This document shows, one piece after another, positions 2,984 to 34,775 of a stretch of 64,000 nucleotides of DNA. Under the pieces are notes generated by a model that ran no database searches, was not told the DNA's origin, and was given only the letters and a program-made list of their open reading frames with translations. Numbering within the stretch: position 1 is the stretch's first letter; every line of letters starts with the position of its first letter. The translations under genes and the position numbers were made by a program. This stretch comes from Mesotaenium endlicherianum (lineage: Eukaryota), in contig WELA01001056.1 in NCBI GenBank assembly GCA_009602735.1, positions 1-64,000 on the forward strand, in the 5' to 3' direction.

Positions 2984-3330
2984 CTGTCCCTTCAGTAGAC
3001 ATGGGAAGGTGACAGGAGGTCCTGTCTCCATATAAGTTGGAGGGGAATGTGACAGTTAGTGACAGTTGTGACAGGCAGCCCACCTTTAAAATTAAGTCGG
3101 AGGGAGTGGTATTCTGTTTCGGGATCAGCCGGAAAATCTCTGATAACCATATTACACACTCAACCTGCGCTTACACTCACTTTCTCTCTAACTCAATTTT
3201 CCCTTATATTCACTCACACCAGGTATTTCACAATAGGATCTCTCTCGATCGCGTTCCTCTTCATCAAGGGCACTCAGTAACGGCAAAATATCATGACTTT
3301 ACTACTGCATTGTGTTTATGATTGAGCAGG

Positions 3331-5252: not shown

Positions 5253-5253
5253 G

Positions 5254-5265
5254 TGGTATCGGAGC
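5254..5265 (+). promoter_or_regulatory. Primer-binding site, initiator tRNA-Met type
   Basis: TGGTATCGGAGC lies 1 nt after the LTR and differs by one base from the canonical plant TGGTATCAGAGC. Confidence 0.9.
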
Positions 5266-5286
5266 AGTTATCACAGTCTTCTTTGT

Positions 5287-10615: not shown

Positions 10616-10817
10616 ATATATGACAGTTAGTGAGCGAGAGCGATAAAAACACACTCATACGTTTATGTGTAGCGCATCGCAACTACGTCAACTTTTAGCA
10701 ATCATCCTGTAAGGTAAACAGCAGCGAAGCCACTATACTAAATACTAACATACTTCCTGCAATCCCTATGACAAAGGTCCATATCCTACTAACTTGTGCC
10801 CTGGTTACATGTGCAGG

Positions 10818-12494
10818 ATGGCGCCCACCACACAAAAGGAGGACAGAAAGCGCAAGGCAGAAGAAGCCAGGAGGACAATGGAGCAATACCAGAAGGAGCT
10901 GGCGGCGACGTCCCTCACCAGGAGAGAACAAGAAAGGGTCCGCAAACAACAAGAGGCGGCAGAAGAGGCACAGAGGAAGAAGGATCAGGAAGCGGAAAAC
11001 CTCAGGAAGGCTGAGGAGGAGAGACAGAAGAAACAGCAAGAAGAAGCGGCAGCGGCAGAAGAGGAGAAAAGAAAAAAGATTGAAGCGGACAGACAGAAGA
11101 GCTTGGCCACTTACAGGTATACTGTGGTGGGTGGCCAAAACTTCGATAACCTGAAGGAAGCATTGCTGGCAGCCCAGGAGATCAACAGGCTGGAACAGAC
11201 AACACTGCTACAGAAGGAAGGAGCTACAGCACTGGACAGGTACATCGAGACACACACCGGCGTGGTCCTTTACGAAGATTATGCTAAGATGGTGGGCTAT
11301 ACAGCAGAGCAGGCCCGGTATCTCGCAGATGATTCAGAGGACAAGCCGGTCCCCATACCGGGAATAGTGGGAGATCAGAGTCTCATCCGGATAGTGAGCA
11401 TGCGGCCCGATAGCTTTAAGGATACGGTATTCTACCTCACACTCCTGCCAGCTTATAATGAAGTCGAGAGAAGGAGCTGGGAGTACTTGGCCAGGGAAGC
11501 AGGACAGCAGATGTTCTCTCCCCACTGGTTCCCGTGTAAACTGAGGAAGGCTGAGCACGGACCCCAGTACTACCAGCAGCCAACAGACTGGAGGTGGATG
11601 ACCGTCACAAATAAGAAGCAGGAGTGTGACCGAGCCCAACCGGATGACTTCCACTATGGCCTAGACGGCTATCTCATCCTACCACCTCACATTGCCCCTT
11701 GGGACCCCAGGCTGAATGGATGCCTGAGCAATATGAATGCAGAGACCAAGGAACATAGGAGGAGGGGAAGAGACTACTTCTCTAAGGGAAAGCATGCCTT
11801 TGTCAAATGGGCAAAGAATGCAGGCCGGATAGATATCAGTAGGCTGAAGGCCAAGCAACCTCCAGCGCGCCCTAAGAAAGGGAGGTCGGTAGACTACTCC
11901 ATGTCTACTAGGGAGCAGGACGACTTAGTGGACGAGACCCCTACTCTCTCCGAGGAGGAGGATGAGGAGGATGAGGAAGAAGAACAAGGCAGAGGAGAAG
12001 CATCAGCAGCAGGTACTCAGGATACCCAGGGACAGGCAGTGGCACTTCCTAAAGAACCACGATCAGGTGTGTGGAATGTGATCCCCGTTATGGCGACAAC
12101 TGGACCCCGCGCTCGCTCCCCCAGCCCACCTGCCCAAGCAGGGGAAGAAGCTGATCTGACTGTACTGGGCAGCAGACACAGGCAGAAATCCCCAGAGGAC
12201 AGGGGTGCCAGAAGAGGGACACGCGGGTGGGCCAGAGGTATGCCAGCCTCCCCCTCCGCTCAGGGGCATGTACCTCTAGCCAATGTATTTCAGCATCCTA
12301 CTGGAATGCCTGTCTATGTGGGAATCAACACCCAAATAGTTGAAGAGCAGGCCACCATCCTCCGTTCTCCCCGAGGGCCAACTTTAGAGCAAACAGGGTT
12401 CTTTAGAAGGCCAGCTGACAGACCTAGAGGGCTGTCCAGATCTAGGTCCAGATCTCCGTCCCCTGATCCTGAAGCCCCAGGAACCACCCCTTAA
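10818..12494 (+). CDS. Extra ORF3 of A2 (~558 aa; coiled coil, Trp-rich globular core, acidic and RS-rich tail; function unknown)
   Basis: Long open frame between pol and the PPT, with a diverged homologue at the same position in A1. No hydrophobic transmembrane stretch. The start is placed at CAG|GATG, which both copies share. Confidence 0.88.
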   Translation: MAPTTQKEDRKRKAEEARRTMEQYQKELAATSLTRREQERVRKQQEAAEEAQRKKDQEAENLRKAEEERQKKQQEEAAAAEEEKRKKIEADRQKSLATYRYTVVGGQNFDNLKEALLAAQEINRLEQTTLLQKEGATALDRYIETHTGVVLYEDYAKMVGYTAEQARYLADDSEDKPVPIPGIVGDQSLIRIVSMRPDSFKDTVFYLTLLPAYNEVERRSWEYLAREAGQQMFSPHWFPCKLRKAEHGPQYYQQPTDWRWMTVTNKKQECDRAQPDDFHYGLDGYLILPPHIAPWDPRLNGCLSNMNAETKEHRRRGRDYFSKGKHAFVKWAKNAGRIDISRLKAKQPPARPKKGRSVDYSMSTREQDDLVDETPTLSEEEDEEDEEEEQGRGEASAAGTQDTQGQAVALPKEPRSGVWNVIPVMATTGPRARSPSPPAQAGEEADLTVLGSRHRQKSPEDRGARRGTRGWARGMPASPSAQGHVPLANVFQHPTGMPVYVGINTQIVEEQATILRSPRGPTLEQTGFFRRPADRPRGLSRSRSRSPSPDPEAPGTTP

Positions 12495-13328: not shown

Positions 13329-14710
13329 ACACTGCTCTCTGAAGTGACCTGGCTGCTGGCAATGGAAGCAAATCGACTTTGCTGAGGTTGGTCTCGGCTT
13401 AGTCCTACCACCACCTCTTCCATAGCCGCCTCGAGGGAAACCACCTCTACCTCTAGATTGTATGGCATTATACTCATACTCATATCCATCACCCTGATCA
13501 TCCTCGGCCTAGTCTCCCTCAATTGCATTGTAGGAACCGTGGGCTTTTTGACAATCTTAGACACCAAAGCATTACTCTGGCGCTTGTGATTGAACTGCTG
13601 TTGATCCCAGGCATCAGCATCCTGGATCAAGTCAGCCAGTTTCTCATACTTCTTCTCAGCGAAATGACCAGAGACTTTGGATTTCAAGCCATACCTGAAT
13701 TATGTTATCCAACACCGTTCTGGCAAGTCTGGCCGCTTCATCATGTTCTCCTGGAACTTTTCAGCAAACTCAGCAACTGAAGTGGTCTGCTTCAGTGTCA
13801 GGGAGATCATCGCATAAATAGCTTTCTCCTGCTGGTTGATGACATCAAACTTCTCATGCAACTTCTCGACAAGCTCTACCCACGTAGGGTCACCGAGTTG
13901 CCGAGCCTTACGCTCTCCTTTCCAGTAAAGCCACCAGTCTGCGGCACTGCCTTTCAGTAGCGCACCGGTGTGCCTGACCTTCTCGTAATCTTGCAGTTCT
14001 GGGTAATTCTCCAGCCACTGCTCAACATCCGCGAGAAAATTGATCAGGTAATATTTTCTGTTTTCCTTAGGATCATACTCCTGGGGAGGTTTCGGCTTGG
14101 GCTTACTAGGCCCTCGGCCACCACCACTAGTGGTTTGAGACCCCAGTTGGTCTCTGTCCTCCTGTTGGGACTAATTCATGGTCGCCATTTGCGACTGCAT
14201 TTGAACGAACAATGCTCCTAAGTCTACACTCTGGGGTGGTAGTCTAGCAAATGCAACAGCAGCATTGGCATCGACTCGCTGAGTAGAGTCCTCAACAGTC
14301 CCTCTCGCTCCTGCAGCAGCAATTCCTGCCGCATTCAGCCGGTCACGTATTTGACCTAGGGGTACATTGAGTTGTACAGCAGGAGGTGGGTTCAGAACGT
14401 TGGCCCTTGATGCCATAACTTCTTCAACAGTGCGCTCGTCAGCTGGCCGTCTTTCCCTCCTTTCTGTATCTTCAGCGGCCTTTGCTAATTATTCAGCTTC
14501 TAATCTGGCTCTCTCCTCGTCAGCTTGCTGTGCTGCGACTGCGGCAATAGCAGCTGCCTCATCTGCAGCCTCTCTAGCTGAAGTATCTACCACTGCTTCA
14601 GAATAGGTACGGGTTCCCGCTACATGGCTTTCTGCGTGGTTTTCGACATTCTTGTTATCCTGGTTCTCCATGTGTCGGGAGTTGCTAGTTTGAGACCTTG
14701 TCCTTACCAT
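13329..14710 (-). pseudogene. gag: Degenerate gag of A3
   Basis: Fragments [12 protein letters not shown]..., [12 protein letters not shown]... and [16 protein letters not shown]... with stops, frameshifts and a 30-bp deletion. Confidence 0.93.
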
Positions 14711-14731
14711 ACAAAGAAGACTGTGATAACC

Positions 14732-14743
14732 GCTCCGATACCA
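14732..14743 (-). promoter_or_regulatory. PBS of A3 (tRNA-iMet type)
   Basis: GCTCCGATACCA on + equals TGGTATCGGAGC on -, 1 nt from the LTR end. Confidence 0.9.
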
Positions 14744-14744
14744 C

Positions 14745-15464
14745 TGAAATGAATCGACTTACCAAATAGGCGATTCACAATTAATAAAGATCTTCATATC
14801 AGCAAGTAATCTTTATGGTAATTTCCGTTAATTGGTTAAACGGCAAAAGGACAACACACTAGCAGTGAACAACACTCGTAAATCAAATGCGAGTAAACTA
14901 GCATCAATAATGCAATCAGTAGACTCATACATAAGCAAGGTTAGAAGACAGTGCGTATCAATGGCTTCTCGCCTTGGATTCAGATCTCTCTCAGTAAGCT
15001 GTACAAGAGAGTTGGCCTCGTTTTCCAAATGCGCAACTCGAGAGTAATACCTAGCATATGTACATGGAATGAGTTTACTGTTCAACAGTTAGTGCAATGG
15101 CACCGCCTACCCGGGAGTTAACCAAGTTGGTAGGACCTCGGTTAACCAAATCCACCGCCATCTCCCATCATCCCGAATCGCCATCCATCCTAAGGATGTC
15201 ATCTGGCCATTCATCTAGCACACCACACTTAGATGCATATCTAGGCAGTTCGCTGACCGACTACGGAAGTTAGCTGGCTGTCAAAGAATGTGTCAGCAAG
15301 CTGACCTAAGTTGACTTCAACCTGCTGCTTTCCGGCTGAGTCATTAAACTGATGATTTAATAAAGTCCAGCAGACTCAATATTACCTAAAGTTCAGCAGG
15401 CTGAACTTATTTAACTATATTATTCAAATGAATATTATATCAAGCAATATATTGATTCATTACA
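14745..15464 (-). repeat. 5' LTR of A3 (720 bp)
   Basis: Inverted copy of the A2 LTRs: TGAAATGAATC...GATTCATTACA on +. Confidence 0.95.
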
Positions 15465-17918
15465 GCTGAGGCGTCCCTGCCCTTCTGCTGAAAGCTTTTA
15501 TTTTTTGGCCCTGTGGCTGGGTTTTGGGAAGGCAGTCAGGACATTCCCACCGTCCTGCCATAATTTCTTCTTCATTAATGCAGAAGGTGTGCCAATGGGC
15601 ACCACACTTATCGCTGGTTACCATTGCTTCTTGATCATCCAGCACTTTGCAGCTGGCACAAGGCGTGGCTGGCACCACTTCCTCGGGCTTAGTCTTAATT
15701 GCAGGATCGATATTTGGCAAATGGCACAGCAAACAGTTTTGCACGTGATCTCTCATGGTCTTACCATCAGAACCTTCCAGTTCCAACACACCATTGTCGA
15801 ACGCATGTTTCACGCGTAAGATTATTGCACTTGAATTGGTGTCAATGGTGGTCTTAGTTTGGCGCATGCGGTAGACGAAGTCTCCTTCCTGGATCTGCGT
15901 CATTTGCAGGCGGTAGCTCCCATCTCGCGTCCTGGCGTAACGCTGTGTGTCTCTTTTCTGTGCAATTTTCAGATTGTCCAGGGCAACAGGCATCATGTGC
16001 TCAAATAACACCTTGCGGCGCAACATGACCTTTAACAGTTCATCAGGGTTGTCCAGATCTTTCACCTGCTCAATCTCCAGCTTGATGCTGCTGGGCACAA
16101 CTGGAGTTCTTCTAAACAAAATTTGATAAAGTAAGGAATTCGCCAAAGCTGCTTGCTTGCTAAATTTGCGAGATCGCAGCTCCACCGGTAGCCTAGGCCC
16201 ATGATTGGCAGAGGTTGCAGGTGTGGGTGTTGCTGCGTAAAACCAGCCTTGACGCGATCGCAGCTTGTACAGGCCTTGATCACATCCTCACACTGCTGCT
16301 TCATACCCCTCCACCAGTAAGACAGCTCCAGAAGACTGTATGTCTTCTTGACACCATAGTGTCCAGTAGTCTCATGCATTTCCTGCACCAAAGCTCGTCT
16401 TTTGGTGGGTTCTGGCACTAACTTTTCCTGACCAGTTTCTTCAATCTTGAAGAGGTTATTGCGTTTCTAGCAAAATCTTTCAGCTCGATGGCCTACCTGG
16501 TCCTTTTCTTTTGCCGATAATCCTTCTATATGGACCCCTGTCTTCAACCAATGCATAGTGGCTTGATCTTTCCAAATCTTTGGACTGAACAAAGGTAGGG
16601 GCTCAACTTCTCCTGATGCTACCAATTTAGCCATTTCGGCAAGGCAGGCGGCCAATTCTGTGGGGCTGCTCGGATCTTCGTCTTCTCGAGCTCCTGTTCT
16701 GTTGTCTGCAGATGGGTCCGGGTTCCTGCTGAGTCCATCAGCGTCGTTGTTGAGTATACCTGCTCGGTGTATCAACGTCATCTGGTACTTCTGGGGCTTG
16801 AGAGCCCAACGAGCCAGTCTACCAGTGAGGTCTCCATTCTTCATCAGCCAGAGTAATGGCGAATGATCTGTGATCAGCGTGAAGGGTCTTCTCCATAGAT
16901 ACTCTCTAAAATGTGCAACAGCCCAAACCACTGCCAGTAGCTCTCCTTTGTAGGACGAGTAGTTGCTCTCCGCTCGGTTGTTAGAGCTCGAGGCATAGGC
17001 AATGACGTACTCCTCTCTAGGACTTTCGTCCTGAGTGAGTACTGCGCCAATTCCCACACGACTCCAATCGGTGTGTAGATTGAACGGCTTGGAGAAGTCA
17101 GGTGTTCGCAAGACTGGGGCTGTTACCAGCCGCTCCTTGAGCTCGTTCATGGCCTTCCCCTGGGCTTCCGTCCACACAAAAGATACGTCCTTTTTCAGGA
17201 GTCAAGGGTTTAGCAATTTTGCTATAATCCTTCACAAATTTACGATAGTATCCGCTTAGCCCTAACAGAGCTTTCAACTTAGACACATTCGCTGGTGCAG
17301 GTATCTTGTAAATGGCTTCAGTCTTTACAGCCAGAGGGGACATAGCATTACCGTCCATTGCCAAAGTTCCCTTTGGGCCCAGAAAGCGGTCTTACCTCGA
17401 TCTTCTGTCTTCACAGGGATCTGGTTGAACCCTTGGTGTAGATCGATGATGCTGAACACCTTCCCGGTGGTAGCAATCGCAAAAATCCGCTCTGGTGTAG
17501 GCATCACATAGCTGTCTGGCTTCGTGAGAAGATTCAGTCGTCTGTAGTCTCCACACATACGAGTGGCTGTATAGTTGCCATCCTCGTCCTTCTTGGCAAC
17601 TACAACCGTGGGAGCTCCATGTATTGAGGTTGATTTCTCGATCATGCTGAGCTTGTGCAGCTCCTGGCAAGTTTTCTCCACACAGTCCCATTCGGTCTAA
17701 CTGAGCTTATGCGGCCCAAGTCTGACTGAATTATCAGCAGTTAGTGTGATCTCACACACACTGGCAGTGGTTCTACCAATCTTCTCTTTGGTAAAAGCAA
17801 ACACCTTGCGGTGCTTCTTCAGCAGCCTTTCTACTTGTGCTCTCTGTTGGGCTGAGACCATATTTCCAATGGTGAAGACCTCAGTTGCTGGCTGCTTTTC
17901 CCCAACACAGGCATCCAG

Positions 17919-17927
17919 TAGTTGCTA
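17919..17927 (-). other. Putative stop-codon readthrough signal UAG-CAA-CUA (B1)
   Basis: ...KPKE TAG CAA CTA continues in frame into QLLDACVGEKQPATEVFTIGNMVSAQQRAQVERLL and the RT. The same nonamer occurs at the same position in B2. Confidence 0.75.
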
Positions 17928-20099
17928 CTCTTTGGGTTTAGGTGGGGGCTTTCCGCCCTCATCCTGGCCTTCAGGCTTTTCTGCCTGATTGTTTGGCGGT
18001 GGAGTGGCAGGCTTTGCAGCTTGCTCCTCCGCTATCTCAGGCTTGGCGGCTTGCTTCTTAGGCCTCTTACCTTTCCCGATAGATCGTCGCCTTTCTGGTT
18101 GCGTGGTGTAGGTCAAGCGCCTCCGGATGGGCTACCTCAAGAATCTTTCTTCATCGGCCGCAGTCCAGGTGGTCCCTGTTCCTCCTTCTTCACGTGGTGG
18201 GGGTGGGTTTGGCAAAGGCCACCCTGCTGGATCTGCTCTGGGGTCGATTATCCAACCCCATTCGCGCTCAATGGTAGCTATGCGCGCAACGGTTGTGCCA
18301 AACTCCTCCCTGGCTGGTGGCGTAACCGTCCATGTTTGTGTCATAGTCTGCGATCTTTGGGCCGCAGCTAGTTGTGCGTATACAGCATTTTCTGCTGTTA
18401 AGCGGCTTATGGTGCTTCTTAGCTCTACCAATTCCCTTTTCGACACTGCAAGTGTCCTAGGAGCTGAACTGTCCTTCTCCCATGTTCCAGTGGATGAGAG
18501 ATGCACCATGGGAATGTGAATTCCCAAAGTCATGTCTTTGCGAATTAAGCCATCCTCTCCCTCTCTCTGCAAAATTTCTAGGATAGGTTGCGGAGGAGGA
18601 GCCGTGGTTCCTTTCGGAAACCCTTCTCTCTGAGCTGTTCCCCTGTACTTGAAGTAACGCATCAGCATCCGCCTAAAAGGTGCATTCCCTTTCCGGGCAA
18701 CCTTTCTTGGTCTGCTTGCACAACCGTGAGGATTTCCTTGTGTTGGTTCCACCTTAGCTGTGCAGGCAGCCACTTCCTGCGGTTGTTGTAGCTTATGTGG
18801 GGTAGCTTCTGGTGTTGGAAAACTAACGGTTGGAGTGCTGGATGTAGGCGACCTTAGATCGTTGTAAAGGTCGGCCGGGCTGGGTCCTTCCATCATCAAT
18901 TGGTCGTTCACCCAGTCATCCGTTCTGAGTTCTTGTAGCTCCAATAGTTCCGATTCTGGGGTAGGAAAACGTGGAATTGCTTCCTGAATCTCCTCTTCAT
19001 TGGTGACTGACGGCAGGTCAAACCTTGGAAGGTCTGGCATCTCTGCCTCATCTTCAACTGATTTCTCCGCTCCGGGTGGTGGCGTTTTCCCTTCATTATA
19101 TGTGTTGAGCTTTGCCAAGTTGACGATGGCTGATTGCAGAGCGCTTGCCGCCTTAGCCACTTCCCGTTCCTTGTGTTGTCCGGCGTCTGCGTCCAGCAGC
19201 TGCTCCATGATTTGCCTTGCAATGGATTCAGCTGTTTGACTGGCTGAACCCTGCCGTTGCCCCTTAGCTTGCGGCTCTGGGCTCATCAAGGCAGGTGTTG
19301 TAGACAATTTCTTGTCCAACTCCTCCTGGCGTTCTTCGAATATTACTTCGAGACATATGGTCTTTGCAGACCCTCCAGAATATCCTGAGTTCTGGCTACT
19401 CTCTTCGGCCCATTCACCAAGATTGCACTGGCGTTCTTGCCTTGGTACTTGGTTTAGGCAGTATCCAGTGTTTTCAGCTGTAGGCACAGGAGCCTTCTTC
19501 TCTGATTCTTTTGACATGTCTTGTAACGACGCTCGCTCTGGTGAAGACAATAGACACTCTTGGTTGGCTTCCCAGCTACTTGAGCTTTCCTGCCAATAGT
19601 CTCCGTGCTTAGCTGCTCTTGGGCTAAGGGGGGTATCATACCCTGACCTGGCCTCTTCTGGGGTCTCTTCACGTCTTGATGTCGTTGTTCCGGGAGGTGA
19701 GCTTCCAAAAATCTGGCTGTGTGTGGCGTTTCTCACAGATAATGGGGTGCCATGCGTATTGTCTTGCACTCCTGGTAGCGGTGCTGCTTGCTCAGGTGCC
19801 TGATCCCTCATGGGTGTATCCTCTCTTTCCAGAGGTGCTTGTAATTCATTGGTCCGGTTATCAATCCGGTTTAATAGCTCCTGACATCTCATCAGTTCTA
19901 CCATCCTATCTCCCTTGTATGCTCTGTCTACAGCGGCTTCCGCTGCGTCTCTTTGCACCCAGTATTCTTCTTGTTGCTGATGTGCCATTCTGATAGCCCT
20001 CTGGTCAGATGTTGGCACAACATTGATCCCAATTGTCACTGGTCATGGTCTCGGCATAGGCTTGTCAGTGAAGGTCAACTGTTGCCATGTCATGATTGT

Positions 20100-21060
20100 T
20101 TCCACCAACCAAGTCATAGAGTGCTGCCCGATCATGTTGCCGAAAATCTTTGCAGCCTCATCAAATCCTACAGCACCAGCTTTATGCCGAGCTATGTTTA
20201 CGGGTATTCCAAGGCATTTGCCCTTTTCCACCGCGGTGGGCTCTCTCCACACAGCGTCTCTTTTATAAATGTCTTTGACCATTCCTGGTCCACCTCCTTT
20301 GAAGGCTCGGGTTCCTGGATATGCTGTAAAGGTAGGCAGTACCACTCTTGGCTGACCTGGTTCATTGATGACACACTGTGGATAGGAATCCCTCCAGGTC
20401 ACTGGTCTGGTATGCACCGCCAGTGCCTTTTCCCCTGTCAATGCTGTTGGTGATCGCCGTGTAATGTCTTCCATTTCTCTCAGAACCTCGATAGACATGC
20501 CGTTGGTCCAAAGTATCCTGGCCCTATGAGAGAATCCTCCGTCTTGGCGTCGTTGATTAGCACATGATGGCCCAAAGTGGAGTAAAAAATCAGCCATGGT
20601 TCTCCCGGCTTCATCTGCTTGCGGTCCATTCCTGGATGTACGTTCTCAATCACAAACACAGGTGAGTGATAGTACTGACGTTCCCGCAGTATGCTAACCC
20701 ATCCATCCCCAGTGTTGTGCTCGTGGATCACTGAATCCCATCCTGTTTCCAGCTTGAGAATATGGTTGACAAGGGAATCCAGCAAAGATCCAATCAATCC
20801 TGTAGCCATACAGGTATTCAAGCTTCACGTTCATAATGTTGCCTCCAGCAATGCGCTCGACATTGCTATATGCAGGCGCCAACCTTTGAAAATGATGCAT
20901 TTGCCGCTCTGATTCATGACCTCTTGGAATGCTCGAAAAGCGTGGTCATTGTTGTCCACATACAGGACTTTGGCCACCTGTATTCCTCGCTGGATCAATG
21001 CTATGGTCCCAGAGCCAAGTCCGGCGAATAATTCCAACACCACCACTCCCCTTTTGCGGA
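20100..21060 (-). pseudogene. C5 cytosine DNA methyltransferase domain of B1 (frameshifted)
   Basis: Motif I VLELFAGLG is in the same frame as the protease C-terminus (ORF 20831-21550). Also IV AGFPCQPYSQAG, VI FVIENV, VIII SHRARILW, IX REPTAVEKGKCLGIP and X IFGNMI. Confidence 0.92.
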
Positions 21061-22799
21061 AAGGATCTTCCATCCTGACAATGCCTTGCGGCAACGGCTC
21101 CACTCCAGGCATCAGATTTGCAGAGGAGGTAACTTGGTAGGGTACTGGCAGCAGCTCTTGCGGGCCGTGGTCCCTATTACTTACAGTTTCCAGCTGCTTC
21201 ATGATCCGGGATTGCCATACCAAGGGTGTCGGCATGTTGATGCTTGTATAGCCTTCCTCTTCTTTCTTCATGAGGTCATCGCTGGCTTCTGGGTACCTGT
21301 CGTTAACGTAGCAGTCTAGCAGTCCGTAGTCTGCTTCTCCTATGCAAACCATTTTCACAAGAATTTCTCCTGCCGGCTGTCTATCTGTTGACTGGTAAGT
21401 CACTCTCTGTTTCCGCAGATCAATGATCATACCCAAGGGAATCAGTGCTTCTGTTCCCAAGAGAACATCATAGTTCTCAGCTTCCGTCACTGTGCACTCC
21501 ATGAATAGTGACGCCTCTTCAGGTTTCCCTAAAGTTAATGTGATTTTCACAGGCTTGCGGGTAATCCCACAAGACTTTGAGACTTATCCTGAGGCAGTTC
21601 TCAATTGAAAAGAACTCTCTTTCGAGTCCCTTGTCGTCAAACCTAGAACTTTCACAGCTAGTTTTCCCAAAATGACTGGCTGTGCGCCTGTATCCAACAG
21701 ATGGTTGGGAGCTGCCCAGTTGTTGAAGATCAATGCACCATCCTTATTTTGCACTCTCACGGTGCTAAAATTGGTGGGCAATGAGGCGCTATTTGCACCT
21801 TCCTCAGCTATATCCAGCTGATGTCCGGCCTCTTCAACCGTGAATGGGTAGGTGATGTGCAAATCAGCGAGAGAAAGCAAAGGAGCATGCTGGATCCGGT
21901 GTTCCACCAGAGCCTTCAGCTTCTCCAGTGAAAAACTGAATGTCTTGCACAACCCGGGCCTGGTTTGTCGTGGCTGCGAGATCTTGTTTTCATCCAGAGT
22001 GATCCGGAAAGTCTGAGGAAGCTTCCTAGCATTCCTTGGCACCAGACGGTTGTGATCTGCTTGCTCGGCAGCCGTTGCATCCACAGCCTTTTCAGGCAGC
22101 CGCTTCTCGCCTTTGCAGAAGGTCTTTTCTGCAATGTCTGCATCATAATAGACATTGGGCGCATTTAGTTTTGCAAACTGTGCTTTCAACTCAGCAATTT
22201 CTGCAATCATAGCTTCATACTTCTGGTTACCCTTGCGGTTACCAGAGCCACCCTTTTCTTTCTTTTTCTCTTTGTCTGCCTCTTTCGTGGCAGCATTTGC
22301 CTAGGGCGGCTTTAGATTTGGATTCTTAGACCAGCACTTCGAAAGTGAGACCATTTCCGCTGGTTCGTCTGCTAAAACATTTTGCAGACAGCTTGAACTT
22401 AGGATTTTCATCCCGATCATCACCGGCCATTTCGAACGGTGAACAGGACTCACTGACTCTTCCCCACACGTCTTGCTCTCTGCCCAAATTAGGTGTAAAG
22501 GCTCGTGTGTTATCTGGGTTCTCACCGCTTGCGGAGTTATAATGAGATTCGTCTCTCGACGTTTGCTCACTCCACCGGTTGTCAGTATGCTCAGACGTCT
22601 CAGTTTCTTGTTGACTCTGGCTAGAATTAGAACCTTCTGCAGGCTCCACAGAGTGGTAGAGTCTTCCAATCCTCAACCGCATATCCAGTTGAATTTCTCC
22701 GAGTCCCCTTCCAGGTTGAACACAAGCAGCCTTCACAGGCCTCAATCCCCAACTGACTTGGGAATTCTTGTTCACCTGAACCAATCAACCGAAGTTCTC

Positions 22800-24459
22800 A
22801 GAAGTAGGACAGAAGCGTCTTACTTCCACGCACGCTTTCGCCCAAGTTGAGGGTTTACAGAATTAACAAGTTGGTAGTCTGCAGAAATCACGTCTAAGCA
22901 GCTTAACAGGCAATGTCAAGTTCAGATAAAATCGCCTTTCAAGGCTTTCGCTTAACTTCCACGAGTCACAGCTTACAAAACTCTGAACTGCACATCTATG
23001 CTGGCCTGGTCTGAAATCTTCGCTCAACACCGCGCCTTAACAGCTCTTCACTGCTTGGCTGGGCTCACTCAGTTCTTCGCTGAGAGCTTTTGCTTGTTAA
23101 TACTACTCTTGCTATCAGCAATTCGACAATTGAGAATTCTGAGAACTTGGAAACTAACACAGCACTCACCATTTTAAGTGACCCTCGCACGCTGGTGGCG
23201 TTTGACCCTAGTCTGTGCTAATCTCCAAACAGATTCTATTTTGCAGCTCTCTTTCTACCAGAGAGATCCTCTCTTGGGAACTCCTGAGGTCCAACCTTTC
23301 TATGATACACTTTAGGACAAAATCTTCCAGCGTCGGCAGAAGCGTGGCGCCCTGGCTCTTCTATGGCCTTGGGAACTCCTTCTTCTTCGCGCTCCTTCTG
23401 CTTCTTTAGCTTCCTTCGACAACGATGCGGGCAAGAATGAGGCGGCTTCAGGCAAGACTCGTGCCTTTCACAGGCACCACACATTATCCTCTCTCGAGAA
23501 TGCCAGTGCTTAGCCACCACGCTTAGCTTGCATGCCGTCCTTACCCGGCAGTTCTCTCACAGCTTAGAAGTTGTCATTCAGCATGCATGCATGCATGCAT
23601 TGGAATTGTTGCACGTGACCACTTAGCCTTCCAGCTGACAATCACGCCTATGTGGCTGGCTGACAGCGTTTAGGATGAACGCTCAGGCCGTGACCAGTCA
23701 CCTGAGGGCCTAGCCGAGGCGGCACACAACGCCCTTTGCAACATCCCTGCTGTACTTGGCTTGGATAGCCGATTGATCGGTACCTTTCTTCGCACTTGCT
23801 AGTCTGGCTCATTGCTGGTTCCATGTCCCTAGCCTTTCGGCTGACCACTCGGTCCACATCGCCATCCCCCTCCTGGGTGTGGGTGTGACGTGTCGTGACC
23901 ACTTTGACAGTGACAACGACTTCAACATGACCGCTGACTCGGTCCTCTGGTCGGTGAGTCAATGCTGACTTCCCGTACCTGGGCGGCCGTGACTTGCGCT
24001 GCGCGTTCGGCACCGTCAAGTGGATAGCAGTCGCAACAGTGCATATGTTGATGTTAGCAGCGTTGTGTGATTTGCATGACTCTCTAAGGTGATGATAGCC
24101 GTGGCCCTAAGCTTGTCAATGGAATTGAGCGGCGAAATTGATTTTTTGTGACTTAGTGTCGTGCCTAACAGTGTCGGTCCCTTGGCACGTGCGTAGCCTT
24201 CCAGCACGTGTGCCTTCGGCCTGGTTGATGTGTCGGTGGCCCTCCTCATGTGTGGCAGACATGGTCGATCGACCTTTGCACGTGTGTCGGTGACAAGCCT
24301 TACCAGGGTTAACCCATCCCTGGGTTCCTGAACTTGCACCATGCAGCCTTGACCAACACTCAGGGTGACGTTCTCTGTCACCCGGCTCTCACCATCTGCT
24401 TATCCTAAGACTTTAGCAGAAAATTTAAAAATACTTGCCTTGCCTTAATTCCTCTTACA
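22800..24459 (-). repeat. Family B leader / putative LTR between B2 and B1
   Basis: On the minus strand it begins TGTAAGAGG directly after a PPT. 22800-24038 is homologous to 33500-34775. The inner LTR end and the PBS were not identified. Confidence 0.6.
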
Positions 24460-24470
24460 CCCCTCCCTTT
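24460..24470 (-). promoter_or_regulatory. Polypurine tract of B2
   Basis: AAAGGGAGGGG on the minus strand, ~35 nt after the polyprotein stop and followed directly by TGT. Confidence 0.8.
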
Positions 24471-24506
24471 CAGCTGAGGCGTCCCTGCCTTTCCTGCTGA
24501 AAGCTA

Positions 24507-27500
24507 TTATGTTCCAGCCCTGCGGCTTGGGGTTTTAGGAAGGCAATCAGGACATTCCCATCGTCCTGCCATAGTTTCTTCCTCGCCAATGCAGAAAGTG
24601 TGCCAACGGGCACCACACTTATCGCAAGTTACCATTGCCTCCTGATCGTCCAGCACTTTGCAGCTGGCACAAGGCGTGGCCGGCACCAATTCCTCGGGCA
24701 CAACCCTAACTTTGGGATCAATATTCGGCAGATGGCATAGCGAGCAATTCTGCACGTGGTCTCTCATGGTTTTACCATCAGAACCTTCCAGTTATAACAC
24801 ACCATTGTCAAACGCATGTTTCACGCGCAAGATCACTGCACCTGAACTGGTGTCGATGGTGGTCTTGGTCTGGCGCTTGCGGTAGACAAAGTCTCCTTCT
24901 TGAATCCGCGTCATCTGCAGGCGGTAGCTCCTGTCTCGCGTCCTGGCGTAACGTTGCGTATCTCTTTTCTGTGCAATTTTCAGATTGTCTAGTGCAGCCG
25001 GTATCATGCGCTCAAATAGCGCCTTACGGCGCACCATCACTTTTAACAGTTCATCAGGGCTGTCCAGGTCTTTCACCTGTTCAATCTCCTGCTTGATGCT
25101 GCTGGGCACTACTGGACTTCTGCCAAACAGTATCTGATATGGCGAGTAATTTGCCAAGGCACCCTGCTTGCTAAATCTGTAACCCATAACCAGCCATGGC
25201 AGGGCTAGATCCCAGTCACGCTTGTCATGCTCAAGGCAAAACTTGCGCAAAGCAGACTTAGTGGTTTGCACCATCCTTTCTGCCAGACCATCTGCTTGCG
25301 GATGATCTCTAGACGTAGTGCGATGATCGATGAAGCATCTGTCCAAGAGTTTCTAAAAAGACCCTTGGAACTCAGACTGTTGGTCTGTCAGCACTTCTGC
25401 TGGAGCTCCATGACGCACAATCACACCATTGAGGAATGCTTCCGCGGTCCCTAGGCTCTCCTTAGCAGTCAGAGGGACAACCTCTATCCACTTAGAGAAA
25501 TGCTCAATTATGACCATGATATACTTGTTACCTCGCTTAGATAGCGGTAGCTCACCTGCGAGATCGCAGCTCCAACGGTAACCTAGGCCCATGATTGGCA
25601 AAGGTTGCAAGTGTGGATGTTGCTGCGTAAAACCAGCCTTGACACGATCACAGCTTTGGCAAGCCTTGACCACATCTTCACACTGCTGCTTCATGCCCCT
25701 CCACCAGTAAGACAGCTCCAAAAGACTATATGTCTTCTTGACACCATAGTGTCCAGTGTTCTCGTGCATTTCTTGCACAAGGGCTCGTCTCCTGATGGAA
25801 TCTGGCACTAACTTCTCCTGACCAGTTTCTTCAATTTTGAAGAGGTTGTTGCATTTCCAGCAAAACCTCTTAGCTCGATGGTTTACCTGGTTTTTCTCCT
25901 TCACTAATAGTCCTTCCAAGTGAGTTCCCGTCTTCAGCCAGTGCATAGTAGCTTGATCTTTCCAGATCTCTGTACTGAACAGGGGTAGAGGCTCAGCTTC
26001 ACCTGATGCCACTATTCCAGCCATTTCGGCTAGGCAAGCCACCAACTCTGCTGGGCTGCTTGGGTCTTCGTCCTCTCGAGCTCCTGTTCTGTCGTCTGAA
26101 GATGGGTCTGGAATCCTGCTGAGTCCATCGGCGTCGTTGTTGAGCACTCCTGCTCTGTGCACTACCGTCACTTGGTACTCTTGCAGCTTAAGAGCCCAGC
26201 GAGCCAACTTACCAGTGAGGTCTCCATTCTTCATCAGCCATAGTAATGGTGAGTGATCCGTGATCAGTGTGAAGGGTCTTCCCCACAAATACTCTCTGAA
26301 GTGTGTGACAGCCCAAACCACTGCCAACAGCTCTCCTTCGTAGGACGAGTAGTTGCTCTCCGCTCGATTGTTAGAGCGTGAGGCATAGGCAATGACATAC
26401 TCCTCTCTAGGGCTTGCGGCCTGAGTGAGCACTGCGCCAAATCCCACACGACTCCAGTCAGTGTGCAGATTGAACGGCTTGGAGTAGTCAGCCGTTCGCA
26501 AGACTGGGGCTGTTACCAGCCGCTCCTTAAGCTCGTTCATGGCTTTCTCCTGAGCTTCTGTCCACACAAAAGGTACATCCTTTTTCAGGAGTTCCGTCAA
26601 GGGTTTAGCAATTCTGCTATAATCCTTCACAAACTTACGATAGTATCCGCTTAGCCCTAACAGAACTTTCAGCTTAGACACATTCGCAGGTGCAGGTATC
26701 TTGTAAATAGCCTCAGTCTTCACAGCCTGAGGGGACATAGCATTGTTCCCAATCTCATGTCCTAGGTAAGGCACGTGTGCCTCAAAGAATCTGCACTTCC
26801 CTAGATGCAGCTTCATTTGGAATTTCTCCAAGCGCTGGAACACTTGTCCCAAGTGCTCGAGGTGCTCCTCTATGGACTTGCTGAATACTACCACATCGTC
26901 TATGTATGGTTTAGCGAAATCCAGCCCCTCCAGCACTTTATCCATAGTCCTCTGAAATATGGCTGGGGCATTTTTCAGCCCAAATGGCATTATTGTCCAT
27001 TGCCAAAGTTCCCTTTGAGCCCAGAAAGCAGTCTTACCTCGATCTTCTGCTTTCACAGGGATCTGGTTGAAGCCTTGGCGCAGATCGATAATGCTGAACA
27101 CCTTTCCGGTGGTGGCAATTACAAAGATCCTTTCCGGCGTAGGCATCACATAGCTATCCGGCTCCGTGTAGAGATTCAGTCGCCTGTAATCTCCACACAT
27201 ACGAGTGGCAGTGTAATTGCCGGCCTCGTCCTTTTTAGCGACTACTACTGTAGGAGCCCCATGTACTGAGGTAGATTTTTCAATCATGCGGAGCTTATGC
27301 AGCTCTTCACAGGTTTTCTCCACACAGTCCCATTTTGTCTGACTGAGCTTATGCGGCCCTAGTCTGACTGGGTTATCAGTAGTTAGTGTGATCTCACACA
27401 CACTGGCAGTGGTTCTACCAATCTCCTCCTTAGTGAAAGCAAATACCTTGCGGTGTTTCTTCAGCAACCTTTCTACTTGTGCTCTCTGCTGGGCTGAGAC

Positions 27501-27565
27501 CATTTTCCCAATGCAAAAGTCTCAGTTTCAGGTTGCTTCTCCCCAACAAAGGCATCCAGTAGTTG
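24507..27565 (-). pseudogene. pol: B2 ORF2: RT-RNase H-integrase-PHD finger
   Basis: ORFs 25353-27503, 24792-25346 and 24507-24767 share one frame. Motifs: PYIDDVVVF, LHTDWS, HENTGH...CQSC, WSCD/LTDQ/GLAERM, then CASC...CDKC...HTFC...CPDC. Confidence 0.93.
24543..24671 (-). other. PHD finger (Cys4-His-Cys3) at the integrase C-terminus
   Basis: CASCKVLDDQEAMVTCDKCGARWHTFCIGEEETMAGRWECPDC, including the Trp before the last Cys pair. The B1 copy (~15533-15661) has one Cys replaced by Ser. Confidence 0.92.
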
Positions 27566-27568
27566 CTA
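27560..27568 (-). other. Putative stop-codon readthrough signal UAG-CAA-CUA (B2)
   Basis: ...PAPKE TAG CAA CTA CTG GAT GCC, the same context as B1 17919-17927. Confidence 0.75.
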
Positions 27569-30500
27569 CTCCTTAGGTGCAGGTGGGGGCTTCCCGCCCT
27601 CATCCTGGCCCTCAGGCTTTCTTGCCTGATTCTGGCTCTCAGGCTTTGCAACTTTATTCTTAGGAAGTGGGGTAACAGGCTTTGCAGCTTGCTCCTCCGT
27701 TGCCATAAGTTTGGCAGCCTGTTTCTTAGGCTTTTTACCTTTCTCAATGACGCGTCGCCTCTCCTGCGGTGAGGGGTATGTCAGACGCCTCCGGATGGGC
27801 TGCCTTAGGAACATTTCCTCGTCGACTGCAGTCCAACTGGTCCCGGTTCCTCCTTCTTCACGTGGCCAAGGTTGGTTTGCCATTGGAAAACCTGCGGGAT
27901 CTAACCTAGGGCTGATCGCCCAGCCCCATTCTGGCTCAATAATAGCCATGCGGGCGACGGTCGTGCCATACTCCTCCCTTGCGGGTGGTGTGACCATCCA
28001 TGCCTGCGCTAATGTTTGCGGCCTTTGAGGTGCTGCTAGTCGTGCGAGAAAGGCATCATCTGCTACGGTCAAGCGGCTGATGGTGTTTCTCAGATCCATC
28101 AGTTCCCATCCTGGGATTGCAGGTATCATGGGAGCAGGCTCTTCCGAACTCTGTATCCTAAGATCTGATAGTTGCAACAAGGGCGTGTTCATGCCTGGCG
28201 GCACACTAATGCCCAATGCCATTGCCCTGCGAACCAAACCGTCCTCTCCCTCTCTCTGCAGAATATCCCGCAGAGGCGGAGGAGGTGGAGCTGTGGTTCC
28301 TCGCGGAACGCCCTCTCTCTGAGCCTTCCTTTTATGTTTGAAATATCGCTTTAGCATCCTTCTAAAGATGCGTTACCCTCACGGGCCACCTTCCTTGGTC
28401 TGCTTGCGCAACTTTTGGGCTTTCCTCGTGCTGTCTCCACTTTAGCAGTGCAGGCAGTCACCTCCTGCTGGTGCGGCTATTGTGCGGCTGACTTGGGTTC
28501 TGCCACTGGAAGACTGGCAGAAGGAGAACTGGATGTTGGCGACCTTAATTCTTCATAAAGGTCTGCTGGGCTTGGCCCCATCAGGTGGTCAACCACCCAG
28601 TCGTCTGTCCTCAGCTCCTGTAAGTCAAGCAAATCCAACTCTGGCGTGGGAAAACGTGGAATTTCTTCCCTAATGTCCCCTTCATTGTTGAGTGATGGCA
28701 ACTCCAACTCCGAGAGGCCTTGCATCTCTGCATCCTCTTCCTCCTCCGGCTTCTCTGTTCCAGGAGGCGGCAGTTCTTCATCCCCTCCTGTGTTGAGCCT
28801 CGCCATGTTGATGATGGCTGACTGTAGAGCGAGAGCTGCTTTCGCCACTTTCCCTTCCTTGAGTCGAGGGGCGTCTGCTTCCAGCAACTGCGCCATGATT
28901 TGCCTGGTGATCGACTCAGCTGTGCTGCCAACTGTGTCTTGTGGTTGCCCTTTGGCCTCTGGGCCTGGGCCCATCAGAGCAAGTGTGGCGGGCAATCTCT
29001 TGGCCGTCTCCTTCTTGCGTTCTTCAAAAATCACCTCCAGGCAAATGGTCTTTCCAGACCCTCCAGAATTTCCTGAATTCTGACTGCATTTTTCGGCCCA
29101 TTTGCCAATATTGCACTGGCGTTCTTCATTTCTTGATGTTACCGCGTCTGGGGATGGGCTCCCGAAGACCTGGTCTGGAGCCATGTTTCGTAACTCAGAA
29201 CTGGTATATTCCTCCCATTCCGGCATCCTCCCAAATACTTGGCCGGAGCGTTTTGCAGATGCTGGGACCTCCTGTGATTTGCTCACTGCAGCGCTCACCA
29301 AAGGGTTTGCTGCACCAGTTGCCTGGTCTTCCATGGTTGCGTCTTCTCGCAGCCTCCGCAACTCTCTTTCCAGAGGGTCGCGTAGAGTCACCATTCGATT
29401 GTCAATTTGCGTCAGTAGGTCTAGAAACCTGGTCAGATCCACCACTCTGGTTTCTCTGAGTGTTTCATCTTTGTCAGCCTCAGCTGCGTCTCTTTCAACA
29501 CCATATTCTTTTTGTCGCTGATACGCTTCCCTGATAGCTCTCTGATCAGAGGTTGGCACCACATAGAGTCCAATCGTTACCGGCCTCGGCCTGGGCATAG
29601 GCTTGTCAGAGAACGTCATCTGTTGCCAAGTCATAATCGTCTCTACCAACCATGTCATGGAGTGATGTCCAATCATATTGCCGAATATCTTCCCAGCGTT
29701 GTCCTGTCCCACCATTGCAACAATTTCTTGTGCAATGGAGTTGGGTACCCCCAGGCACCTTTCCTTCTCTTCAGCTGTCGGCTCTCTCCACTGAGCCTCT
29801 CTGTCGTGCACATCTTTGACCATTCCCTGGTCCTCCATTCACGAAAGCGCGTGATCCTGGGTATGCTGTGAAGGTGGGCAGCACCACCCTCGGCCGGCCT
29901 GGCTCGTTGACGACGTACTGTGGGTAGGAATCCCTCCTGATCACTGGCTTGGTTTCCACCATCAGTGCTTCTCCCACAGATACTGCCGTTGGCGTGCGCC
30001 GCGTAATCTCCTCCATCTCCCTCAGGATTTCAATAGACATGCCGTTGGTCCAGAATTGTCTGGCCCGGTGTGAGAGTCCTCTATGCCTGGCGTTGTTGAT
30101 CAATACATGATGACCCAGGGTGGAGTCAAAAACCAGCCATGGATCTCCTGGCTTCATCTGGCTGTAATCCATCCCTGGATGTACATTCTCAATCACAAAC
30201 ACTGGTGGGTAGCGATGCTGGCGTTCTCGCAGCATACTGATGATCTTCACCATCCTTCCCCAGTGTTGTGCTCGCGGGTCATTGAATCCCCTCCCATTCC
30301 CAGCTTGTGAGAAAGGTTGACAAGGGAATCCCGCAAATATCCAGTCAATCCTGTGATCATACAGGTCCTCAGACTTCACATTGAGAATGTTTCCTCCACC
30401 AAGACGCACCACACTAGTAGGCACCAATGCCTTGAAATGGTACATTTGCCGCATCTGACTCATGACCTCCTCAAATGCTGTAAGAACACTCTCATCATTG

Positions 30501-33387
30501 TCCACATACAGCACTTTGGATACCTGGATACCTCGCTGAATCAGTGCGATGGTTCCAGTACCAAGTCCGGCGAACAATTCCAGCACTACTACTCCTCTCC
30601 TGCGAAAAGGATCTTCCATTCTCACAATGCCTTGCGGCAATGGTTCTACTCAAGGCATCAAATTGGCAGCAGTCTTAACTGGATAAGGAACTGGCAGCAG
30701 CTCTTGCGGGCCACGGTCCCTGTTACTCACAGCTTCTAGTTGCTCCATAATCCAAGGTTGCCAAATCAAGGGAGTCGGCATGTTGATGCTGGTGTAGATC
30801 TTCTCTTTGCGTTGCATGATGAGGTCATAATGGTCTGGATACTGGTTATTCACACAGCACTCTAGCAGTCCGTAGTTTGCTTTTCCCGAGCAAACCATTT
30901 TTACAGGAATTTCTCCTGTCGGCTGCCGATCTGTCGACTGGTAAGTCACCCTCTGCTTCCGCAGGTCGATGACCATACCCAGGGGAATCAGAGCTTCTGT
31001 CCCCAATAGAACATCATAGTTTTCTGCCTCTGTCACCGTACATTCTATGAACAGTGACGCTTCCTCAGGTTTCCCCAAGTTTACTGTGATTTCCACAGGC
31101 TTGCGGGTGATTCCACAAGACTTTGAAATCTGCCCAGATGCAGTCCTCAACTGGAAAGGACTTTCTTTCAGGTCCCTTGCCGTCAATCCCAGAGCTTTCA
31201 CAGCTCGCTTTCCCAAGATTACTGGCTGTGCGCCAGTGTCCAATAGGATATTGGGAGCGGCCTAGTTGTTAAATGTCAAAACTCTATCCTTGTTCTGCAC
31301 TCTCACAGTGCTGAAATTAATAGGCAGCAAAGCGCTGTTCGCGCCTTCCTCAGCTAGGTCCAGCTGCTGTCTAGCTTCCTCAATCGTGAAAGGGTATGTA
31401 AGACGCAGATCAGCGAGTGAAAGACAAGGAATGTGCTGAATCCGATGTTCCACCAGAGCTTTCAGCTTTTCTAGCGAAAAACTAAATGTCTTGCGTGGCC
31501 CAGGCTTGGCTTGTCGTAGCTGCGCAATCTCGTTCTCATCGAGAGTGATCCGAAAGGTCTGAGGAAGCTTCCCAGCATTCCTTGGAACCAGACGGTCATG
31601 ATCTGCACGCTCCGCAGCCGTTGCAGCCACGGCCTTCTCAGGCGTCAGCTTCTCGCCTTTGCAGACGGTCTTTTTGGCCACATCTGCATCGTAATAGACA
31701 TTAGGCACATTTAGTCTTACAAATTGAGCTTTCAACTCTGCAATCTCTGCACTCATAGCATCATACTTCTGATTATCCTTCCGGTTACCAGAGTTATCTT
31801 TCTCCTTTTTCTTACCCTTATCTGCCTCTTTCGTGGCAGCATTAGCCCATGGTGGTTTCAGATTTGGGTTCTTGGACCAACACTCATCTTCTGAGTGTCC
31901 CTTTTTACTGCAATGTGCGCATACCTGCGCCTTGCTAACAGACAATTTCTTAGCATCCGGGTACGGACAATCTCTCTTCTGATGTCCTGATTTCCCCGCA
32001 GTTCCAACAGCCCTCTGCTGTCTCAATAGTGTTGGCGTGCTTGGCAAACCTATTGAAAGACCCGCTCTTTTTCTTAAACTGAAAGTTAGAGCTGTTGGCC
32101 TTGGGCTGAAAGGATTCCTCCCTTCTCTCAGGAGCCATAAGCGTCCTGGAAGCCTCCTTGTACCAGACTTTACCTTCCTCGACATGGCGTGCTATTTCAG
32201 CAGCCTCGTCGATGTTCCAGTCGATACCGCGTTTCGCAGATAGGTGCGGCCTCACCTCCCGATCTGTATCTTTACCCAGACACAATAAGAATTTGTCAGC
32301 CACAATCCTAGGCTCATAGATTCCTGCCTTCTTGGCAAGGTCTACCAATCTGGATTTGACCTCCATCACTGTCTCGTTCTTCTGACGGACAAAATGCACA
32401 TAGCGGTGCACTTTAAGACTGCGATCCTTTGGGAATGTTGCTCCAAGAAACTTAAAGAAACGACGCAGACAGTGCTCAGAGTCTAACTGGTCATCCCCAG
32501 CCTCCATATCCCTACGGCAACTAGCCAACGCTTGCGCATGGCTTGCTTCCGTGGTGACACTATCACCATGCTGCCCTGTAACAGGTGCAGCTCTGCGTGT
32601 TACTCGTTCCTGAGCATAAGCAATATTTTCAGACAATTCCGCACACACTTTACGCAATTCTGCGACAGATTCAGCATCATCATCTCGAGTAGCCGCTCGC
32701 TGCTGACCCTCAGTGAGTTGCTTCATGGCATCAGTTAATTCTTGTGTTAGTGCAGCTAAGTCTACGCTCTCAACAGGTGCAGCAGGTATCGTTCTTCCTG
32801 ATGACAAAGCAAACAGGCGGGCTTTCGCAGCCTCTTTCTGGATTTTCAAATCTCTCGCCTTCTTTTGCTCGTCAAACGCCCATTCCTGGGTAAGGTTCTC
32901 ATCCTTCCGAAATTGGCGATGCAGCAACAAGGCATCCTTGTCCAAGTACTAAACCAAGCTTATAAAAGCGACTGACTGAGTGTAAGAAGAATCCTTTCGG
33001 ATTTTCTCAAAGAAGTCAGCCCCAATAGATCTCATCAAACTCTTCGAAAGTGAGACTATTTCCACTGGTTCGTCCACTAAAACACTTTGTAGACAGCTTG
33101 AACTTAGGATTTTCATCCTTATCATCACCAGTCATTTCGAGTGGTGACCAAGACTCACTATCTTTATCCCACACGTCGTGCTCTCTGCCCGAATTGGGTA
33201 CAAAAGCTCGCGCGTAATACGGATTCTCACCGTTCGTGGCAGTATGGCGAGACTCGTCTCTCGACGGTTGCTCACTCCACAGGTTATCCGTGTGCTCAGA
33301 TGTCTCACTTTCTCGTGGAGTCTGGCTTGAATCAGAACCTTCCACAGGCTCCACAGGGTAGTAGAGTCTTCCACTCCTCAACTGCAT
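27566..33387 (-). pseudogene. B2 ORF1 (~1,940 codons reconstructed): Gag, two CCHC knuckles, aspartic protease, C5 MTase, long linker
   Basis: Start MQLRSGRL; VRQKNETVMEVKSRL...KFLLCL capsid motif; CWNCGxSGHQKRDC and CAHCSKKGHSEDEC; LDTGAQPV. Where B1 can be compared, the B2 stops and frameshifts are not shared with it. Confidence 0.88.
29650..30600 (-). pseudogene. C5 cytosine DNA methyltransferase domain of B2 (one +1 frameshift at ~29826)
   Basis: VLELFAGLG (I), YVD (II), GNI (III), AGFPCQPFSQAG (IV, catalytic Cys), DPR (V), FVIENV (VI), SHRARQFW (VIII), REPTAEEKERCLGVP (IX), IFGNMI (X). Confidence 0.95.
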
Positions 33388-33499
33388 GTACAGTTGAATT
33401 TCTCCGGTTCCCCTTCCAAGTTGAGCACCGGCAGCCCTCACAGGCCTCAATCCCCAATTTGCTTGGGAGTTTCTATTCACCTGAACCACAGAACCCAAG

Positions 33500-34775
33500 T
33501 TCTCAGAAGTAGGACGGAAGTCTCTTACTTCCACATAGGCTTTATGCCTTAAGGTTCTTGGGTTTACAGGTGAGCAAATTGTAGTTTGCAGAAATCACAC
33601 TCTAAATAGCTTGACATGCAATGTCAGATTCAGAGAAAATTGCCCTTCAGGCTTTCGCTTAACTTCCACAAGTCAGCTTACAAAACTCTGAAACTACGTC
33701 TATGCTGGCCTGGGTCAAGCTCTTCACTTAACACCGCGCCTTAACAGCTCTTCACTGCCAGGCTGGGCTCACTCAGTTCTTCACTGAGAGCTTAATCTGT
33801 CAATACTACTCTNGGCTTTACCTGTCAATACTGCTCTCTCTCTTCGAGATGCGAATGCGACTTCTGAGAACTTGGAAATCAACGCACAACTCACCATTTT
33901 AAGGCTGCTTCACACACACACTCGTGGCGTTCGGCCGACTCTGTGCTAATCTCCTAGCAGATTCTATTCTGCAGTTNTTATTCTGCAGTTCTCCTTCTTT
34001 TACTGTGAGATTCCCTCTTGGGAACTCCTACAATCCTAACTTATCTATGATACACAGAAGAATCTTCGGTGTCGTCGGAAGCGTGGGGCTTTGGCCCTCC
34101 AGTGGCCTTGGGAACTCCTTCTTCTTCTTCGCGCCCTTCTTCTCTTTCCTTTTGCCTCTTGGCAAAGGTGCGTGAGAGTGAATGACATGTCTCAGACAAG
34201 ATACGTGCCTTTCACAGGCACCACACAGCGTCATCTTTCGAGAGTGCCGTGCTTAGTCACACAACTTAGCTGCATGTCGCCTCTGCCTAGCCATGCTCAA
34301 CTCAAACTCGTAGTCACTCAGCATGCATGCACACCTTGTGACTGTCGCGCGTGGCTGCTTAGCTTCTCAGCTGGCAGTCACGCCTAATTGGCTCATGGCT
34401 AAGAATTCCTGAGCGGCGTGCAAGCAAATGCCACCTGCTCAAGTTTTCCCAACCGGGCGGCCGTAACCTATCTTGGCATTGCAGCCATGACCTGGCTTAA
34501 TCTGCCAGTCGCACAGTACCTGACTTGGTACTTGCTGGGCGGCTCATTGCTGATCCCCAGCTCCTAGCCTCGCGGCTGTCTTGTCAACACCTCCCCCATC
34601 CTTGGGTGTGGGTCACACTGACATTGACCCCTTGCCAGTGGTCTTGACGCCGCCATAACCGCTGACTGCGATGTAATCAGTCAAGTGGTCGGTGAGTCAA
34701 CGTTGACTTTCAGCACTAGGTGGCCGTAGCTTGCGCTGCGCGTGCGACACCGTCAAACGGATAATAGTCGCGACA
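33500..34775 (-). repeat. B2 5' leader / putative LTR
   Basis: Diverged homology to 22800-24038, ending at ...GTCGCGACA (TGT on the minus strand). Confidence 0.6.

Follow-up and report, generated by a model that had tools for sequence, protein, structure and literature searches.

A candidate readthrough stop downstream of protease and a Dnmt3-like methyltransferase in a Ty3/Gypsy retrotransposon family of Mesotaenium endlicherianum

Two nested Gypsy families and the coding order of family B

The window analysed here, a 64-kb stretch of Mesotaenium endlicherianum DNA (contig WELA01001056.1, positions 1 to 64,000), is filled over bases 1-35,000 by a nest of two Ty3/Gypsy families that show no relationship to each other at the DNA level. 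Family A, of the chromodomain type, lies on the plus strand and family B on the minus strand. The latter is present as two copies, B1 (15460-24038) and B2 (24468-34775), arranged head to tail with a junction region at 24038-24471; all family B features below are on the minus strand and are given in window coordinates. B1 carries a gag deletion, six private stops and several frameshifts, and its 3′ end adjoins a family A LTR. A purine tract followed by TG at 24459-24471 is, from its sequence, likely the PPT and the start of an LTR, and an LTR starting after the tract at 24459 may be common to B2, at its 3′ end, and B1, at its 5′ end. An upstream repeat is seen in the 73% similarity between 22337-24038 and 33042-34775. 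No intact LTR pair was found for family B. An inverted and rearranged piece of family A occupies 13329-15475, and its LTR starts at exactly the point at which B1 would meet a purine tract of its own.

Family B has the Gag-PR-RT-RH-IN domain order of the Ty3/Gypsy type, Gag being recognised from an Atlas lead and from CCHC zinc knuckles seen by eye. The likely Gag N-terminus of B2 (33016-33387, with the ATG at 33387) has no Pfam match; it aligns with an ATG region of B1 near 22686 and shows a frame change near 33030. The capsid region follows at 31950-32948, as an Atlas lead (Retrotrans_gag/Ty3_capsid, score 0.92) without a Pfam match at the cut-off, and then two CCHC knuckles of NC, read by eye from the translation (31850-32010). 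The capsid region is missing from B1, whose deletion corresponds to B2 33042-31884, and 1.16 kb of gag is readable in B2 only. This stretch contains two frame changes, the one near 32000 falling inside the first zinc knuckle, and one in-frame TAG near 32950, which is 5′ of the capsid region and has no CAR-YYA after it. Judged from this one copy, the frame changes and the TAG look like decay. The aspartic protease of B2 (30950-31261; PF13975, E 1.4e-7) has an LLDTGA motif that is also found in B1 near 21700. From NC to the start of the methyltransferase the two copies align over 349 codons without a gap; the three stops in this block are all private, no break is common to both copies, and the NC-PR junction, the usual place of gag/pol recoding, is colinear.

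Downstream of PR lies a Dnmt3-like C5 cytosine methyltransferase (DNMT), at 29600-30620 in B2 (PF00145, E 1.5e-17) and at about 21070-20050 in B1, where it is broken by frameshifts. The domain is intronless and its motifs FAG.G, GFPCQ, ENV, R.R.FW and GN are found in both copies. Taken alone, the B2 domain ranks HaeIII/HhaI first, and a joint profile, led by the metagenomic relative described below, ranks DNMT3A/B first; these are rankings and not a tree. A DNMT search of longer proteins returned five distant methylases, all without RT. Between the DNMT and the stop there is a linker of about 670 codons (27569-29599 in B2, 17928-20040 in B1) with a K/P/E-rich tail that runs up to the stop. It gave no family match and no hit among 4,079 and 1,382 candidates in protein searches; it is nevertheless under purifying selection (dN/dS 0.20-0.21), and a W/P-rich conserved block near its C-terminal third may be an unrecognised domain. 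An exact protein look-up left 10 of 10 ORFs without a match.

On the Pol side, B2 encodes RT, RNase H, the integrase zinc finger and the start of the integrase core at 25353-27521 (RVT_1, E 1.2e-28; RT_RNaseH; Integrase_H2C2; rve), and the rest of integrase together with a C-terminal PHD finger at 24507-25352, the counterpart of B1 15460-16287. The PHD finger reaches an E of 3.8e-4 in B1, under the Pfam cut-off. The order in family B is therefore Gag-PR-DNMT-long linker-UAG-RT-RH-IN-PHD.

A stop codon shared by the two copies

The stop that separates the linker from RT reads TAG CAA CTA in both copies (27568-27560 in B2 and 17927-17919 in B1). The two sites align codon for codon, and the in-frame stop with its CAR-YYA context makes a candidate readthrough site. 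Is this stop just one more lesion in two damaged copies? Across 2,086 aligned in-frame codon pairs, taken from gap-free blocks of at least 45 nt with shorter blocks and a poorly aligned stretch near B2 29126-29362 excluded, there are 10 stops, six private to B1, three private to B2 and a single one, TAG CAA CTA, shared. A second frame mapping (2,122 pairs) gave six B1-private stops, four B2-private stops and again one shared. CAR-YYA follows a codon in both B1 and B2 at 4 of 2,050 positions when the shared stop is included, and at 3 of the 2,049 others.

These counts bear on a sequence-only reading of the locus, which had claimed that only one stop is common to B1 and B2; one shared against nine private stops confirms it. 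Translation likewise bears out its statement that the B1 frame continues from the stop straight into RT. It had also placed protease and methyltransferase upstream of the stop in the Gag frame, and between the second zinc knuckle and the stop no shared break was found; in particular, none is shared from NC to PR, where a conserved break was named as one of the results that would speak against the idea. The distance of about 20 codons from the stop to RT holds for the N-terminal part of RT and not for the Pfam RVT_1 core, which lies about 112 codons downstream. A conserved in-frame ATG is found 22 codons downstream of the stop in both copies, and the 21 codons of the interval (27501-27565 in B2) encode similar protein in the two.

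Contigs of other family B copies came from three DNA runs (X1, X5 and X7), each of a different study, and were aligned on 27250-27950; one of the runs may be the window's own source. Run X1 provided 437 aligned contigs, in which the changes private to B2 are near-complete (21,296/21,913 at 27335 and 19,199/19,269 at 27806) and the third positions of the codons just 5′ of the stop vary (27569, 27572, 27575 and 27593), synonymous variants being frequent. No variant at 27560-27568 was present among the best 40 of 99 listed, and because the lowest X1-only share among these 40 is about 45%, this speaks for a majority state and not for invariance. Nor was there a variant anywhere in 27490-27568 among the same 40 of 99, so that in these 40 the site does not stand out against its 3′ neighbourhood. 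Record 11 of X5 spans the stop with three differences, all outside the site. For the spanning contig of X7, 33 of 39 changes were listed, among them all 11 A>G changes, none of which falls at 27568, and this excludes CAG there. The frame break of B2 near 27512-27521 is absent from B1 and from the other copies aligned (X5, X7). About 6% of one RNA run (X24) gave 0 reads on this region, a sample that speaks neither for nor against transcription. The stop is the majority state in contigs of other family B copies from three studies, with minority sense-codon copies possible; the sense codon that the sequence-only reading had regarded as the contrary outcome is not what the majority of these contigs carry.

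Between B1 and B2, 28-58% of synonymous sites are changed (dS 0.35-1.1), and dN/dS ranges overall from 0.06 to 0.21, with 0.12 in NC-PR, 0.16 in DNMT, 0.06 in RT and 0.12 in RH and IN. That RT has been selected to this degree after so distant a split argues against a knock-out inherited by both copies, and the two lineages therefore kept making RT long after they separated, with the stop in place. The stop is real and very likely functional.

Decoding of the stop

How could RT be made downstream of this stop? In TMV, CAR-YYA after UAG is described as the essential signal, sufficient alone, with 6-10% readthrough in transgenic Arabidopsis and Tyr inserted at the leaky stop (PMC2754532). The sequence-only reading had assigned UAG-CAR-YYA to the tobamovirus-type leaky-stop context, in agreement with what this source describes. 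Family B resembles the type I sites of TMV and BNYVV in having UAG followed by CAA CUA, with the polymerase downstream and no need for a 3′ structure; it differs in that the codon 5′ of the stop is GAG instead of CAA, and in being a retrotransposon and not an RNA virus (PMC2754532). By analogy with the viral sites, GAG at this position may lower the efficiency of readthrough. Downstream of the stop, no RNA fold beat shuffled sequences (z of -1.5 and -1.6 in B1 and of +0.6 in B2, with pseudoknots outside the model), which agrees with the TMV-type class because sites of this type need no stable 3′ structure.

TMV-type programmed readthrough is probable in family B. Most ribosomes would halt at the UAG and yield a Gag-PR-DNMT-linker protein of about 1,940 residues, and the minority that place an amino acid there would add about 1,020 residues comprising RT, RNase H, integrase and PHD. 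Cleavage of both products by PR would give capsid, PR and DNMT in a ratio near 1:1, with RT and IN scarce. The whole explanation, in which Gag-PR-DNMT-linker is followed by readthrough of a few per cent to give RT-RNase H-integrase-PHD, asks for more than the readthrough step and ranks just after it, and it is the one that we favour as likely.

The best placed of the alternatives, itself unlikely, accepts the readthrough and adds a second recoding point in gag, which would make PR and DNMT rarer than capsid, in the manner of the three-tier expression of betaretroviruses. The frame changes of B2 near 33030 and 32000, in the part that B1 lacks, would suit such a point. However, the change near 32000 interrupts a zinc knuckle at a point between Cys and His, the change near 33030 and the TAG both lie 5′ of the capsid, no known shift motif was seen by eye at the B2 gag breaks, and private 1-nt breaks of this kind occur at other places in B2. 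Judging from the aligned copies, we have good confidence that the frame from Gag to DNMT would be unbroken in live copies. This frame matters, since the upstream protein would be abundant under readthrough, splicing or restart alike, so that for the argument on DNMT dose an open gag frame counts for more than the way in which the stop is passed.

Next in rank, and again unlikely, Pol might restart from the conserved ATG, 22 codons past the stop, through reinitiation or from a short internal transcript. That ATG is in frame in both copies, and Tca2, for which a promoter at the junction and an absence of local readthrough in yeast are described, illustrates that local readthrough may not be measurable even at a conserved in-frame stop (PMC2194720). 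Against a restart, the residues encoded from the stop to the ATG are similar in the two copies and several of the changes there are synonymous (dN/dS 0.17 for the first 77 codons past the stop), and the CAR-YYA context would be left unexplained. A free Pol would moreover lack the Gag anchor for packaging. Placed after the restart, and improbable too, the stop could be a hard end of ORF1, with Pol translated from a spliced RNA as in Ogre and the TAG possibly serving as the 3′ splice acceptor. TAG does fit YAG, but the 30 nt upstream of it hold one or two U and three competing AG, which makes a poor acceptor, and coding selection on the linker extends as far as the stop. The Ogre spacer is a separate region of about 274 bp, whereas family B has a single codon with coding selection on both sides, unlike a spliced junction of that type; here too the rare CAR-YYA would have no explanation.

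It is very improbable that the stop goes back to two independent CAG-to-TAG mutations, or to one inherited knock-out, in dead copies. Private stops do arise mainly at CAG and TGG, and they are common in B1, with 5 hits at 137 prone codons (1 in B2). Nevertheless, independent hits at the 137 transition-prone codons lead to an expectation of 0.09 shared stops, and for a shared stop and CAR-YYA to coincide in B1 and B2 the joint chance is about 1.7e-4, a figure drawn from few events but with ample room to spare; the stop is moreover the majority state in contigs of three further studies, and RT has been under selection after the B1/B2 split. Finally, a host code in which TAG means Gln (NCBI table 6), as in some green algae, and in which there would be no stop here at all, can be dismissed, because among the 2,360 codons of the three family A2 ORFs there are 145 CAA/CAG and no TAA/TAG, and TAA ends each of the three; the host code is the standard one, with TAG as a stop.

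Related elements and other features of the window

Alpharetroviruses make Gag-PR and pass a junction after PR by -1 frameshifting, with no DNMT, and the stop of SIRE1 reportedly has a CAR-YYA context. SIRE1 is, like family B, a plant-lineage retrotransposon with stop suppression, but it is a Copia element whose suppressed stop lies between pol and env, and not before RT (PMC2829016); the parallel with SIRE1 drawn by the sequence-only reading does not extend to the place of the stop. Tj1, Tosmo1-3, Tcry1, Tca2 and MuLV are described as setting their Gag:Pol ratio with a single in-frame stop between Gag and Pol parts, as the stop of family B would (10.1101/2022.12.06.519325, PMC2194720, PMC8310308). 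As these sources describe it, their stop precedes PR and is accompanied by GAA-TGA-CT or a pseudoknot, whereas that of family B follows PR, the DNMT and the 670-codon linker. A GAG-PROT / RT-RH-INT split is reported in Ogre, by splicing, and in other plant Gypsy lineages (PMC6317226), whose regulated junction after PR, like the predicted one of family B, has PR made with Gag; unlike that of family B, the Ogre junction is an intron, and no DNMT is reported. In this light the sequence-only reading went too far in calling the position of the recoding point unusual.

KnitGypsy-Dnmt3 of Klebsormidium nitens likewise belongs to Gypsy and has an intronless DNMT that is related to Dnmt3 and under purifying selection; this domain is reported to share the Pol ORF with RT and RNase H (PMC5890265), where family B has a conserved stop between DNMT and RT. 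The DIRS-like A-coding-B-A-B repeats described for KnitGypsy were not found in family B, both copies of which are truncated or interrupted. The KnitGypsy-Dnmt3 domain showed no activity in yeast, a result given as inconclusive by its authors (PMC5890265).

Locus searches gave one relative in metagenomes (contig L001) and none in the viral contigs or prokaryote genomes searched. At 699-6803 this contig has an apparently intact Gypsy pol ORF of 2,034 codons, which encodes RT-RH-DNMT3-like-IN-PHD and about 300 further residues, without a protease match. The start of the pol ORF shares about 10 bases with an ORF lying upstream in another frame. L001 and family B are 43% identical in RT-RH, share an integrase followed by PHD and have homologous DNMTs (29% identity, E 5e-28); among solved structures the L001 DNMT is closest to DNMT3A, with DNMT3A/B ranking first. 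Unlike in family B, the DNMT of L001 sits between RNase H and integrase in one ORF, and a stop with CAR-YYA was not found in the first 1,500 bases of the contig. On these gene orders, the DNMT appears to have changed sides of the recoding point among related elements (family B compared with L001 and KnitGypsy), a comparison that gives no direction of the move.

What would family B gain from this arrangement? The gene order puts the DNMT likely on the abundant side of the recoding point, and we lean towards its being packaged in excess. Methylation of the cDNA by the DNMT inside the particle is speculative and, in our opinion, rather doubtful. More tentative still, and on the unlikely side, is the full scenario, in which the Dnmt3-like domain would have moved from Pol to the Gag side of the leaky stop, raising its dose roughly ten- to twentyfold to capsid level, and hundreds of methyltransferases per particle would mark the cDNA before PHD-guided integration. 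CpG observed/expected is 0.54-0.58 in family B, 0.43 in family A and 0.62 in flanking DNA, with no CpG loss specific to B.

Gag-PR / RT-RH-IN splits and retrotransposon readthrough are already known separately. Their combination was not found in print, and a literature search that was thin on subscription journals gave no report of readthrough after PR and DNMT in Gypsy elements. The case made in print for self-methylation depends on DNMT and RT lying in one ORF; in family B the enzyme would be uncoupled from RT and tied to the dose of capsid, and its presence on either side of the recoding point in family B and L001 offers a direct test of its role. If true, this would be a TMV-type readthrough site 5′ of RT in a Gypsy element, of which the search found none, and translational recoding would be used to dose an epigenetic enzyme.

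The part of the window at 37000-64000 is GC-rich host DNA with dense CA, CAG and CT simple repeats, and a third TAGCAACTA at 44425 has no relation to family B. Within family A2, the gag/pol overlap (6735-6765) holds a T TTA AAA heptamer just 5′ of the gag stop, likely a -1 frameshift site at the usual recoding place. Family A also has a third sense ORF 3′ of pol (10749-12494, 581 codons), which has no Pfam match at the cut-off and is rich in coiled coil, and a diverged version of it is found at about 3300-4590.
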